Assembly (NCBI GenBank): GCA_964498245.1
Contig: CAZCGK010000002.1
Location: 6,133 to 70,132, forward strand
Length of the DNA: 64,000 nucleotides
Direction of reading: 5' to 3'
Source of the DNA: an uncultured archaeon
GTDB lineage: Archaea > Aenigmatarchaeota > Aenigmatarchaeia > QMZP01
A program made the translations under genes and the position numbers. Below are positions 56,399 through 58,576 of the stretch, piece after piece. Positions within the stretch are counted from its first letter, which is position 1; the number at the start of each line of letters is the position of its first letter. Under the pieces are notes generated by a model. It made no database searches. It saw nothing but the letters and a program-made list of their open reading frames with translations, and was not told the DNA's origin.

Positions 56399-57682
56399 AT
56401 GCTGGATATAAAACTTATTCGTGAAAGGCCGGAGGTTGTGAGAGAAAATCTCATCAAGAGGAATGAAAAAGAAAAGCTTGAATGGATCGATAAAATTATA
56501 GAATATGATAAGAAGTGGAGAGAATCCCTTCAAAAACTAGAATCCCTTCGGCACAGAAGAAACATTATCACAGAGAAAATAGCGAAATTCAAAAAGGAAG
56601 GAAAAGATACAAGCAGCCTGATAAAAGAGGTTAAAAGCATCCCAGAGAAAATAAAAGATCTGGAAGAAAAAACCCAGAAATACAGAGAAATGATAGATTT
56701 TTATCTTAAAAATCTTCCCAACCTGCTTCATGAATCTGTTCCCTTGGGTAAGGACGAAAATGATAATATTGAAATAAGAAGATGGGGGAGGCCGCCTAAA
56801 TTCGATTTCAAACCCAAAAACCACCTTGAAATTGCAGAAGGACTGGGTCTGATAGATGCAGAGAGAGCAGCAAAGGTCTCTGGATCCAAATTTTTCTATA
56901 TCAAGGGTGAACTCGTTCTTTTGGATATTGCAATTCAGAAATACGCCATAGATTTCCTAATAAAAAAAGGTTTTACACCAGTGGAACCTCCATTCATGCT
57001 GAGAAGGAAACCATACGAAGGTGTGACCGATCTGAAGGATTTTGAAAATGTGATGTACAAAATAGAAAACGAAGACCTTTATCTCATAGCTACATCTGAA
57101 CATCCTATAGCAGCTATGTTTATGAACGAGGTTCTGGAAAAGGATAAGCTACCTCTGAAATTCTGCGGAGTTTCTCCCTGCTTCAGGAAAGAGGCAGGTT
57201 CTCATGGTAAGTACACAAAAGGTCTTTTCAGAATGCATCAGTTCAACAAGATAGAGCAATTTGTTTTCTGTCTTCCAGAAGAAAGCTGGAAAATTCACGA
57301 AGAATTGCAGAAGAATTCCGAAGAGCTTTATCAGGGTTTGGGTTTGCATTACCGTGTGGTAAACGTTTGTACAGGAGATATAGGTCCTATAGCAGCAAAG
57401 AAATACGATATAGAGGTATGGATGGCTGATGGAAAGTTCAGAGAGAGCGGAAGCAATTCCAATTGCACCGACTATCAGGCAAGAAGACTGAATATACGAT
57501 ACCGGGAAAAGGAAGGTCTTCCACCCGCAGGTTTTGTCCACACCCTTAACAACACCGCCCTGGCCACAAGCAGAATAATGGTTGCAATTCTTGAACAGTA
57601 TCAGCAGGAAGATGGATCTGTGGTAATACCCAAGGTTTTAAGACCGTATATGAATGGAATGGATGTTATATCAAAATGGTGA
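56399..57682 (+). CDS. serS: seryl-tRNA synthetase
   Basis: It has an N-terminal coiled-coil arm and class II motifs. Its length is 427 aa. Confidence 0.9.
   Translation: MLDIKLIRERPEVVRENLIKRNEKEKLEWIDKIIEYDKKWRESLQKLESLRHRRNIITEKIAKFKKEGKDTSSLIKEVKSIPEKIKDLEEKTQKYREMIDFYLKNLPNLLHESVPLGKDENDNIEIRRWGRPPKFDFKPKNHLEIAEGLGLIDAERAAKVSGSKFFYIKGELVLLDIAIQKYAIDFLIKKGFTPVEPPFMLRRKPYEGVTDLKDFENVMYKIENEDLYLIATSEHPIAAMFMNEVLEKDKLPLKFCGVSPCFRKEAGSHGKYTKGLFRMHQFNKIEQFVFCLPEESWKIHEELQKNSEELYQGLGLHYRVVNVCTGDIGPIAAKKYDIEVWMADGKFRESGSNSNCTDYQARRLNIRYREKEGLPPAGFVHTLNNTALATSRIMVAILEQYQQEDGSVVIPKVLRPYMNGMDVISKW
57513..57676 (+). repeat. direct repeat copy 1 (164 bp; 3' end of serS)
   Basis: It is identical to 58413-58576. 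Confidence 0.9.
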
Positions 57683-57689
57683 AGAAGTG

Positions 57690-58037
57690 TTACTCTGTTC
57701 CTTCTTCTTTTACGATTTTCTGAAGTTTTTCTTTTAGCGATGGTATATCCTTCATTATTGTATCCCAAACAGCCTCTATATCCACCCCAAAATATGCATG
57801 TATCAATTTATCTCTCATCCCAGCTATTTGTCTCCATGGTATATTTGAATGTTTATTTCTGAAACCTGTTGAAAGATTTTTGGTGGCTTCCCCGATTATC
57901 TCTATTTCCCTTATCACCGCATCTTGGAGCATACGATTATTCCTAAACTCATCATAATCTCTATCTCTCAAATATTCTTCTATTAAATTAATAGCGTCCA
58001 ACATGTGCCTAAGAAATACCAGGTCATCTTTCCTCAT
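57690..58037 (-). CDS. hepT: HepT-family (DUF86) toxin, RNase of a HepT/MNT toxin-antitoxin pair
   Basis: It has the Rx4HxY motif RDKLIHAYF. Confidence 0.8.
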   Translation of the reverse strand: MRKDDLVFLRHMLDAINLIEEYLRDRDYDEFRNNRMLQDAVIREIEIIGEATKNLSTGFRNKHSNIPWRQIAGMRDKLIHAYFGVDIEAVWDTIMKDIPSLKEKLQKIVKEEGTE

Positions 58038-58321
58038 CCAAACACCACTTTCGATTCCTTTTCAATTCTTTTTATTAAATACGGGCTAATAGATGCCTTT
58101 GTAAGCAGATCTACTTTCATGTTCAATGTGTCTTCCAATTCTTGCTCTATTCCCACAAGTTCAAGCAGACTTTTCCTTTTTTCAAACTCCACAATAATAT
58201 CCAAATCACTTCTCTTAGTATGCTCACCTCGGGCATAAGAACCAAATATCTCAATTTTTTTGGCACCGTGTTTTTTTAAGATTGATACCAATTTATCTAT
58301 AATCTTATTCATCTTCTTCAC
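58034..58321 (-). CDS. mnt: MNT-family minimal nucleotidyltransferase antitoxin
   Basis: It has the GSYARGEHTKRSDLDIIV (GSx10DxD) motif and overlaps hepT by 4 nt. Confidence 0.8.
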   Translation of the reverse strand: MKKMNKIIDKLVSILKKHGAKKIEIFGSYARGEHTKRSDLDIIVEFEKRKSLLELVGIEQELEDTLNMKVDLLTKASISPYLIKRIEKESKVVFG

Positions 58322-58412
58322 CTTTTATGAACACATGGTATGTCATAATTTTCAGTTTATGTATTTTATTTCAGTTTGAAAGCTAAATAAGTTTTTCAAG
58401 TTTTAAAACATA

Positions 58413-58576
58413 AAGGTCTTCCACCCGCAGGTTTTGTCCACACCCTTAACAACACCGCCCTGGCCACAAGCAGAATAATGGTTGCAATTCTTGAACAGTA
58501 TCAGCAGGAAGATGGATCTGTGGTAATACCCAAGGTTTTAAGACCGTATATGAATGGAATGGATGTTATATCAAAA
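58413..58576 (+). repeat. direct repeat copy 2 (164 bp; duplicate of the serS 3' end)
   Basis: It is identical to 57513-57676 and is followed by an in-frame stop. Confidence 0.9.

Follow-up and report, generated by a model that had tools for sequence, protein, structure and literature searches.

The 64,000-nucleotide stretch of DNA analysed here (the window; positions 6,133 to 70,132 of contig CAZCGK010000002.1 from an uncultured archaeon of the Aenigmatarchaeota) carries a small toxin-antitoxin (TA) operon, mntA-hepT, between two identical copies of the 3' end of the gene serS. The cassette is a foreign DNA insertion at serS, and the locus is best classed as a known type of integration into the 3' end of a gene with concomitant repair of that gene, here found in an archaeon and free of a recombinase. 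With regard to the route of entry, we give about an even chance to a Campbell-type single-crossover insertion of a circular DNA that carried a 3' segment of serS, whereas other origins of the arrangement are weighed below at lower strength.

The repeat itself (R) is an exact direct duplication of the serS 3' end, 57513-57676 being identical to 58413-58576 over all 164 bp. This was established by a repeat finder as well as by a script and confirms what the preliminary description of this DNA, made from the letters alone, had claimed. The two copies (R1 and R2, hereafter also copy 1 and copy 2) are spaced 900 bp apart, with 736 bp (57677-58412) in between. R is the sole long near-perfect repeat in the window, and a 47-nt piece of it is present at just these two sites, with none expected in 100 shuffles. 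At the left edge of the repeat identity is lost abruptly (G versus A at position -1), while past the right edge 11 of 17 positions still match, stop codon included, before the similarity vanishes. Taken as a diverged homologous serS end, this latter similarity is too short to decide, and it is weak because the extension step of the repeat search favours good ends and because three of the matches are the stop codon. By sensitive blastn no third, degenerate copy of the repeat, which would be a sign of an older tandem element, could be found in the window. A 17-nt match between 58394-58410 and 59383-59399 was set aside, since chance alone should, roughly estimated, give about one match of this kind over so long a region. 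The window further contains a 166-nt direct repeat of 73% identity (25096-25261 and 25570-25735) in a 1707-residue open reading frame (ORF; 21328-26451) for a NosD/beta-helix surface protein, where it is probably an internal protein domain repeat.

The last 170 nt of serS consist of copy 1 followed by the substitute codon TGG and the stop codon TGA (57680-57682). Accordingly, copy 1 ends in AAA TGG TGA (K-W-stop) and copy 2 in AAA GGA TGA (K-G-stop, 58580-58582), the different last codons having been read correctly in the preliminary description. Reading through R1 into TGG TGA, serS still encodes 427 amino acids with a full-length match to TIGR00414, and it is supported that the gene has been kept functional via the substitute last codon and stop. 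Copy 2, in turn, is a dead fragment because there is an in-frame TAA upstream of it at 58388-58390 and no upstream start codon. The features of the locus are compiled in Table 1.

Table 1. Features at and around the serS locus (positions in the window)
Feature	Position	Strand	Description
Gene fragments	52900-53768	-	EpsH/archaeosortase profile positions 94-253 of 254; DUF460 profile positions 90-135 of 135
serS	56399-57682	+	427 aa, intact; TIGR00414 526.7 bits (cut-off 301.65); PF00587, PF02403
Repeat copy 1 (R1)	57513-57676	+	serS codons 372-426, part of the live gene
Left junction	57677-57689	+	apparently insert-borne TGG TGA, then 7 nt leading to the stop codon of hepT
hepT, toxin gene	57690-58037	-	115 aa; PF01934 109.3 bits, 1.3e-31
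mntA, antitoxin (nucleotidyltransferase) gene	58034-58312	-	92 aa; PF01909 69.2 bits, 4e-19; PF18765
Cassette 5' flank	58313-58412	-	GGTGA, presumed promoter region; right junction ...AAAACATA / AAGG
Repeat copy 2 (R2)	58413-58576, with GGA TGA to 58582	+	displaced, promoter-less serS 3' fragment
T6 run	58586-58591	+	3 nt past the copy-2 stop; likely original serS terminator of the archaeal oligo-T type
Truncated AAA_14/DUF4143 (PDC-S01) gene	58648-59022	-	124 aa; PF13635 positions 77-150 of 160

As to which of the two ends is the older one, archaeal transcription terminates at oligo-T runs, and the distribution of such runs differs between the two copies. While the T6 run directly adjoins the stop of copy 2, the first run of at least five T after the copy-1 stop is 43 nt away and lies inside hepT. 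For this reason copy 2 together with the DNA downstream of it is probably the original, displaced end of serS, as the preliminary description had surmised, and TGG TGA looks like having come with the insert. The C-termini of relatives proved uninformative as to whether W or G was the ancestral last codon, their tails being hypervariable, and there is no record of a full-length SerS with K-G at its end (P0001 cluster, one member).

A duplication of this kind might also be generated in silico. The window contig might thread the repeat wrongly, the real molecules being an uninterrupted serS locus (U-R-D) and either a 900-bp circle in free form or a tandem array. A de Bruijn graph alone cannot separate an upstream-R-cassette-R-downstream order (U-R-C-R-D) from U-R-D with a circle, and each of the five contigs of other assemblies that bear on the question (L001, L002, L172, L173 and L175) terminates inside R or at its border. 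These comparison contigs, from other metagenome assemblies of Guaymas Basin sediment, show 0-0.3% divergence from the window. Hydrothermal sediments of that basin are the source of samples 3300014911 and 3300014887 (PMC6478937, PMC8065059). The exact HepT protein was found on two short contigs of other assemblies, L001 and L002, and these are just the junction contigs. L002 (JGI 3300014911) corresponds to window positions 57554-58535, i.e., to the cassette flanked at either end by exactly 123 nt of repeat sequence, and its borders are the signature of a repeat-bounded unitig in a k = 123 graph; L173 from the same sample halts 123 nt inside copy 2. L001 (ENA ERZ27248349, k141) corresponds to 57536-58572. 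Both novel junctions (R/cassette and cassette/R) are present in at least two other samples, having been assembled identically in two of them by two other assemblers, and contigs break at the repeat borders in a third. Here L172 (Logan SRR7051320, 19 kb), corresponding to window positions 64000-58413, halts at the first base of copy 2.

The two copies can moreover be told apart. The 32-kb contig L175 (ENA ERZ27248349; window positions 45653-57676) ends at the last base of copy 1 and carries a synonymous T>C substitution at 57532 (Gly378) in this serS-linked copy, whereas L001 has T at 58432, the copy-2 equivalent of 57532, the last 141-mer of L001 beginning exactly there. One single-nucleotide polymorphism (SNP) therefore separates the serS-linked from the mntA-side copy in ERZ27248349, and two physical copies must exist. 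An assembly artefact or a non-chromosomal form is highly improbable also in view of the different left neighbours of these SNP-distinct copies, of the identical novel junctions in two other samples, of the absence of any replication function from a 900-bp circle, and of the facts that the window contig threads the integrated form and that the exact HepT occurs only on junction contigs. The assembly error that the preliminary description had named as a possible refutation is thereby dismissed. As the copies show 0 or 1 difference in 164 bp compared with the 0-0.3% diversity among contigs, the event would not be older than the species, although a very recent age is not implied by this. The contig L172 (SRR7051320_10279, k = 31-based) passes the right border of copy 2 unbroken and stops exactly at its left border, a pattern different from the breaks at both borders that a simple U-R-C-R-D graph predicts; its end may reflect assembler graph simplification or population heterogeneity in SRR7051320.

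Between the copies there is only a hepT/mntA pair on the opposite strand, in agreement with the preliminary description. Both proteins exceed the respective Pfam gathering scores (23.5 for PF01934, the profile being covered by HepT from position 1 to 120 of 120, and 21 for PF01909), and both motifs are present, Rx4HxY in HepT as RDKLIHAY at residues 75-82 and GSx10DxD in MntA at residue 24 (GSYARGEHTKRSDLD). The tyrosine of the HepT motif is the AMPylation site. The two genes share the minus strand with the antitoxin gene upstream and overlap by 4 nt (ATGA). For mntA, the presence of the gene and of its motif stand as first described, but its start had to be shifted, ATG at 58312 (92 residues) being more likely than GTG at 58321 (95 residues): a Shine-Dalgarno-like GGTGA lies 5 nt upstream of this ATG, and other assemblies likewise call a protein of 92 residues. 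With both genes unbroken and their catalytic motifs preserved, the pair is likely to be active. No solved structure was detectable by sequence for either protein.

Examples of type VII HEPN/MNT systems, in which the antitoxin MntA AMPylates HepT and thus counteracts the toxicity of this RNase, are SO_3166/SO_3165 of Shewanella oneidensis and the HEPN/MNT pair of Aphanizomenon. The pair at serS resembles such HepT/MntA systems in its antitoxin-first operon with a 4-nt overlap, in the HEPN RNase with Rx4HxY and in the minimal nucleotidyltransferase with GSx10DxD. It differs from the studied ones in that it remains below the NCBIfam equivalog cut-off of 60 (42.8 bits with NF047751 and 53.3 bits with NF047752) and belongs to an archaeal subfamily. 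By Pfam and motif it can thus be regarded as a member of the type VII HepT/MntA family, but not as an equivalog of the studied bacterial proteins.

With respect to its origin, HepT shares 85-87% amino acid identity with the ANME-1 archaeon 'Ca. Methanospirare jalkutatii', 81% with Thermoplasmata and 68-75% with Alkanophagales, Helarchaeota, Odinarchaeia and Bathyarchaeota, and is thus far closer to its homologues in these groups than SerS is (54-58% to Methanomicrobia-type loci). At the DNA level, the window matches ANME-1 loci at 86-87% identity over 57706-58328 only, that is over the two genes and the ribosome-binding site, and these loci have no similarity to the window outside this interval; in particular, the left junction (57677-57689) has no counterpart at the ANME-1 cassette locus. 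The cassette has a G + C content of 32-34% in every host, whereas its flanks range from 32% to 41% and the source archaeon has 38%. Members of the cassette family sit in unrelated chromosomal contexts, one HepT sequence (P0142) occurring in at least two contexts at 99.5% nucleotide identity. The suggestion that the TA pair is an insertion was therefore well founded, given the 87% nucleotide identity with ANME-1 and the host-independent G + C content. The pair thus moves horizontally as a unit that extends hardly beyond its coding sequence, and it belongs to an archaeal subfamily widespread in hydrothermal-sediment archaea. The preliminary description had proposed to look for other copies of the cassette with similar flanks; none of the at least five other contexts checked for a gene-end duplication had one.

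Some observations on other members of the family may be added. The closest cassette (87% nucleotide identity; L163 and L164, ANME-1) lies between genes for an EpsH exosortase and a polysaccharide deacetylase. At this position L164, unlike L163, contains a further inserted HepT/Polbeta pair of a different kind, suggestive of a hot spot of TA accumulation. For P0142 (L178-L185), the contigs of many independent assemblies terminate within mntA, some 100 nt upstream of hepT; because of these breaks and of the identical P0142 in at least two downstream contexts, it is suggested that these cassettes are multi-copy or have recently moved in ANME-1/Alkanophagales-like genomes. In L182 (ENA ERZ27248286), a 47-bp direct repeat of 91% identity that is unrelated to the serS repeat (303-349 and 2021-2067) closely precedes mntA and recurs behind an AbiJ-like gene, so that it brackets mntA-hepT, a 46-residue ORF and abiJ. 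A sequence related to it precedes mntA in L188, and the motif may be a shared promoter/operator or a cassette-boundary element.

A single crossover with a circle can produce direct duplications on either side of an insert, and so can transposition with target duplication or the capture of a fragment in the course of staggered breaks, unequal sister exchange or template switching. No simple tandem segmental duplication is at hand, as only R is repeated and the sequence past copy 2 is unrelated to the cassette. In line with the preliminary description, no integrase, excisionase, transposase or other recombinase could be identified between the repeats or in any ORF of at least 113 amino acids in the 64-kb window, nor was an integrase or excisionase among the precomputed Pfam domains of the matching contigs. 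A weak tblastn match at 12166-12327 (E = 0.004) was dismissed as evidence of an integrase since it lies antisense inside an ORF of 1110 residues coding for a surface protein. No attachment-site-like motif was identified, and three exact-pattern scans as well as one protein scan of viral contigs for a viral or plasmid carrier were all negative; the cassette 5' flank had no match there either.

A conventional mobile insertion, either of a transposon or insertion sequence with target-site duplication or of an integron gene cassette, has in its favour that the insert is small and lies between direct repeats, that TA pairs are frequent among the cassettes of integrons, and that integrons are also known from archaea (PMC9668308). 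However, there is neither a transposase nor an IntI at the locus, the insert ends have no terminal inverted repeats, and no significant attC-like hairpin can be folded from the cassette flanks (z = -0.8 and -1.5 versus shuffles). The duplicated segment, at 164 bp compared with 2-15 bp, is about ten times as long as known prokaryotic target duplications. Such an insertion is effectively refuted by the lack of its defining features, and the term target duplication used in the preliminary description is implausible in the transposon sense.

What the locus does share with integrative elements are the gene-derived direct repeats at both ends and the reconstitution of the target by sequence of the insert; a recombinase within or next to the element and a recurrent use of the site in related genomes are both lacking. 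Under the single-crossover model, the horizontally transferred mntA-hepT operon would have entered the chromosome by one reciprocal crossover between the resident serS and a circular DNA in which R (164 bp, then TGG TGA) lay beside the cassette. The catalyst may have been host homologous recombination or an integrase, the latter supplied in trans or no longer present. The product would be U-R1-cassette-R2-D, with an intact serS that now ends in K-W-stop read from insert DNA, while the original end (K-G-stop and T6 terminator) would persist beyond the insert as a dead fragment. The present structure would thus be an integrase-less insert between attL/attR-like repeats. Recombination of R1 with R2 would loop out a 900-bp circle, delete the TA pair and restore serS exactly. 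Such a circle would be recognisable from its specific context …AAAACATA directly followed by AAGGTCTTCC… and from its junction, in which …ATATCAAAA is joined back to the cassette through a single R. As loss of the antitoxin would expose the cell to the HepT RNase, post-segregational toxicity could stabilise the arrangement.

Several lines of evidence argue for this single-crossover entry, in which we infer the circular intermediate and the crossover itself. Exact 164-bp repeats flank the insert, and the insert provides an in-frame codon and stop at the junction, thereby reconstituting an essential gene. Such gene reconstitution at the junction is a hallmark of elements that integrate into the 3' ends of genes. 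Further support comes from the terminator-like T6 kept by copy 2, from the foreign and self-contained nature of the cassette (HepT 73-87% identical at the amino acid level across archaeal phyla as compared with at most 74% for SerS), from the two physically distinct copies revealed by the SNP in ERZ27248349, and from the occurrence of minimal repeat-flanked integrated units in related archaea.

An example of the latter is found in a Bathyarchaeota metagenome-assembled genome (MAG; CAVQPF010000015.1, locus L056:10653-12349), where 101-bp direct repeats of 99% identity lie 1.5 kb apart and enclose a tyrosine recombinase of 308 residues (PF00589) and an ORF of 66 residues. Like the serS insert, this is a small unit between long near-perfect direct repeats in a related archaeal lineage; unlike the serS insert, which encodes no recombinase and whose repeat is part of a host protein gene, it does encode a recombinase. 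Archaeal integrative elements with tyrosine recombinases at tRNA genes include the SSV-type and pNOB8-type elements. As the repeat of the Bathyarchaeota unit overlaps the 5' end of the recombinase gene, the unit is reminiscent of SSV-type integrases carrying attP within their own gene.

The closest parallel in overall layout is the cryptic prophage e14 in the E. coli K-12 record, which begins 165 bp before the end of icd and has a 165-bp icdC pseudogene at its far end. As in e14 (and phage 21) at icd, the insert resides in the 3' end of a housekeeping gene, the live end is borne by the element and the displaced 3' fragment remains as a direct repeat; the topology is the same and the arms are of nearly the same length (164 bp as compared with 165 bp). 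However, e14 comprises 15.2 kb with intE and xisE inside, whereas the serS insert is 736 bp long, has no recombinase and resides in an archaeal host. Moreover, 12 mismatches reduce the identity of the two icd ends to 92.7%, with no exact run longer than 29 nt and with the same stop kept by both, while the serS repeats are 100% identical and their identity stops 4 nt before the stop codon.

In view of this likeness, the locus might be the scar of a much larger provirus or plasmid that had integrated at a serS attachment site and of which everything but the TA pair has been deleted. The erosion of genes in the region (see below) would fit such a history, and no other parts of mobile elements resist loss as strongly as TA modules do (review PMC2701414). 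However, non-coding DNA between cassette and repeats amounts to just 13 nt on the hepT side and about 100 nt on the mntA side, and no fragment of any other element gene is present, so that several very precise deletions would be needed. So advanced a decay should also have left differences between the repeats, unless these were removed by gene conversion, and the relatives of the cassette are found in chromosomal contexts instead of recognisable elements, with none in viral contigs. We therefore hold a decayed larger element to be unlikely.

A further comparison can be made with cis-mobilisable elements (CIMEs), integrase-less remnants flanked by the attL and attR sites of integrative elements that have been described for the integrative and conjugative elements of streptococci. 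Like these, the serS insert is a short piece of DNA between direct repeats of a gene 3' end that lacks recombination genes of its own, and excision or accretion would be possible if a cognate recombinase were supplied in trans. It differs from them in that no cognate element, integrase or conserved attachment-site core is known for serS in the lineage, and it would at best be a candidate for this class.

Several observations weigh against a single-crossover entry. Besides the missing recombinase genes, there is no known source for a 900-bp circle, nothing similar having been found in the viral contigs scanned, and no excised circle was observed in assembled contigs. Unlike the ends of e14, the repeats are perfectly identical, and therefore the serS piece borne by the insert must have come from the same species or gene conversion must have followed. 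The lack of gene-end duplications around other cassette-family members in at least five contexts points in the same direction, as do the results of a survey of serS relatives.

This survey rests on scans of genome and metagenome contigs in which only the matches listed were evaluated, and near-identical short contigs may be missed by it. Among these matches, the best named SerS relatives come from Aenigmatarchaeota, Woesearchaeota and Bathyarchaeota MAGs with 70-74% identity, and the sole match at 100% is the source contig itself (P0001), the next best having 72-74%. As the next-closest SerS is thus only 72-74% identical, no relative with an empty site could be found among the matches listed, either in the contig scans or in the protein search. 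Exact-protein look-ups of SerS and of the 95-residue MNT gave no match, while neighbouring genes did match. The relatives at 72-74% identity show neither synteny nor a HepT/MNT pair adjoining serS, and of 160 related serS loci none had such a pair next to serS, and in none did the serS 3' end recur within 6-8 kb (SerS being only 54-74% identical in these). These lineages thus do not habitually use serS for integration, with the reservation that they are distant. Together with the lack of a recombinase and of an attachment-site motif, the absence of duplication from all 160 loci leaves the earlier wording of a site-specific insertion without support.

The same observations are accommodated by a one-step duplication that captured foreign DNA. 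Staggered breaks or nicks 164 nt apart in the serS 3' end, closed by fill-in around a stray 736-bp fragment, or, as variants, breaks differing between the chromosome copies of a polyploid cell, unequal sister exchange or a replicative template switch, would all yield R-cassette-R without a circle, an attachment site or a recombinase, the in-frame TGG TGA being either lucky or selected. In accordance with such a capture, the window contains no recombinase and serS is no recurrent target; perfect repeats would be expected if both copies stem from the same chromosome; the homology of the cassette ends 13-16 nt outside its coding parts, as in a random fragment; and the truncated genes nearby (58648-59022 and 52900-53768) indicate frequent illegitimate recombination. 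However, the filler must have been a complete functional TA operon with its promoter, the chance of an in-frame stop within two codons of the junction is only about one in ten (an estimate and not a computed value), and neither junction shows evident microhomology. To our knowledge, long fill-in duplications of this kind have not been documented in archaea. Capture is hence regarded as a serious, though less likely, alternative to the single crossover.

The immediate neighbourhood of serS contains several damaged genes. The ORF at 58648-59022 is only the C-terminal quarter of a protein of about 412 residues (PADLOC PDC-S01; PDLC04787 positions 291-401 of 412), and there is no room for the missing N-terminal approximately 290 residues of the DUF4143 protein, since the next gene ends 52 bp away; in other samples this truncated candidate for a defence gene recurs with 100% identity. 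As fragments of EpsH, DUF460 and DUF4143 genes all lie near serS, this part of the chromosome suggests a zone of gene erosion or rearrangement. Just upstream of serS, an overlapping pair on the minus strand (54306-55507) codes for proteins of 205 residues (weak match to DUF6036, E = 0.0019) and 203 residues (weak match to a winged-helix RepL/SarA domain, Csa3-like), and on this weak evidence it could be a second, AbiE-like nucleotidyltransferase/winged helix-turn-helix TA pair. Elsewhere in the window, there are two tRNA-Val genes at 40962-41174 and, on the plus strand, a tRNA spread over 140 nt at 33836-33975 (55.6 bits, Rfam), which presumably contains an intron and was missed by ARAGORN. 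The intron-containing tRNA and the gene content are the marks of an archaeon.

Few genes in hot-sediment archaea are as abundant or as horizontally mobile as the HepT/MNT pairs, and yet these are devoid of mobility genes. The serS locus is a single instance for which no recurrence was found, but it displays such a cassette with both insertion junctions legible in the form of a duplicated gene end, a substitute stop and a displaced terminator. It thereby provides a testable model of single-crossover entry through a borrowed homology arm, possibly with TA-enforced retention, and it would extend target-repairing integration of the e14/icd type to an archaeon and to an insert that lacks a recombinase. 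A bolder variant, which we consider quite unlikely, takes the 900-bp unit as a recombinase-free selfish element with a captured homology arm from an essential gene: it would use host homologous recombination for its entry, the insertion would cost nothing because the essential gene is rebuilt, the toxin would punish loop-out, and a circle once released could integrate again into the serS of any conspecific cell. Were this selfish-element reading true and general, it would explain how minimal TA cassettes spread in archaea without transposases or integrases.

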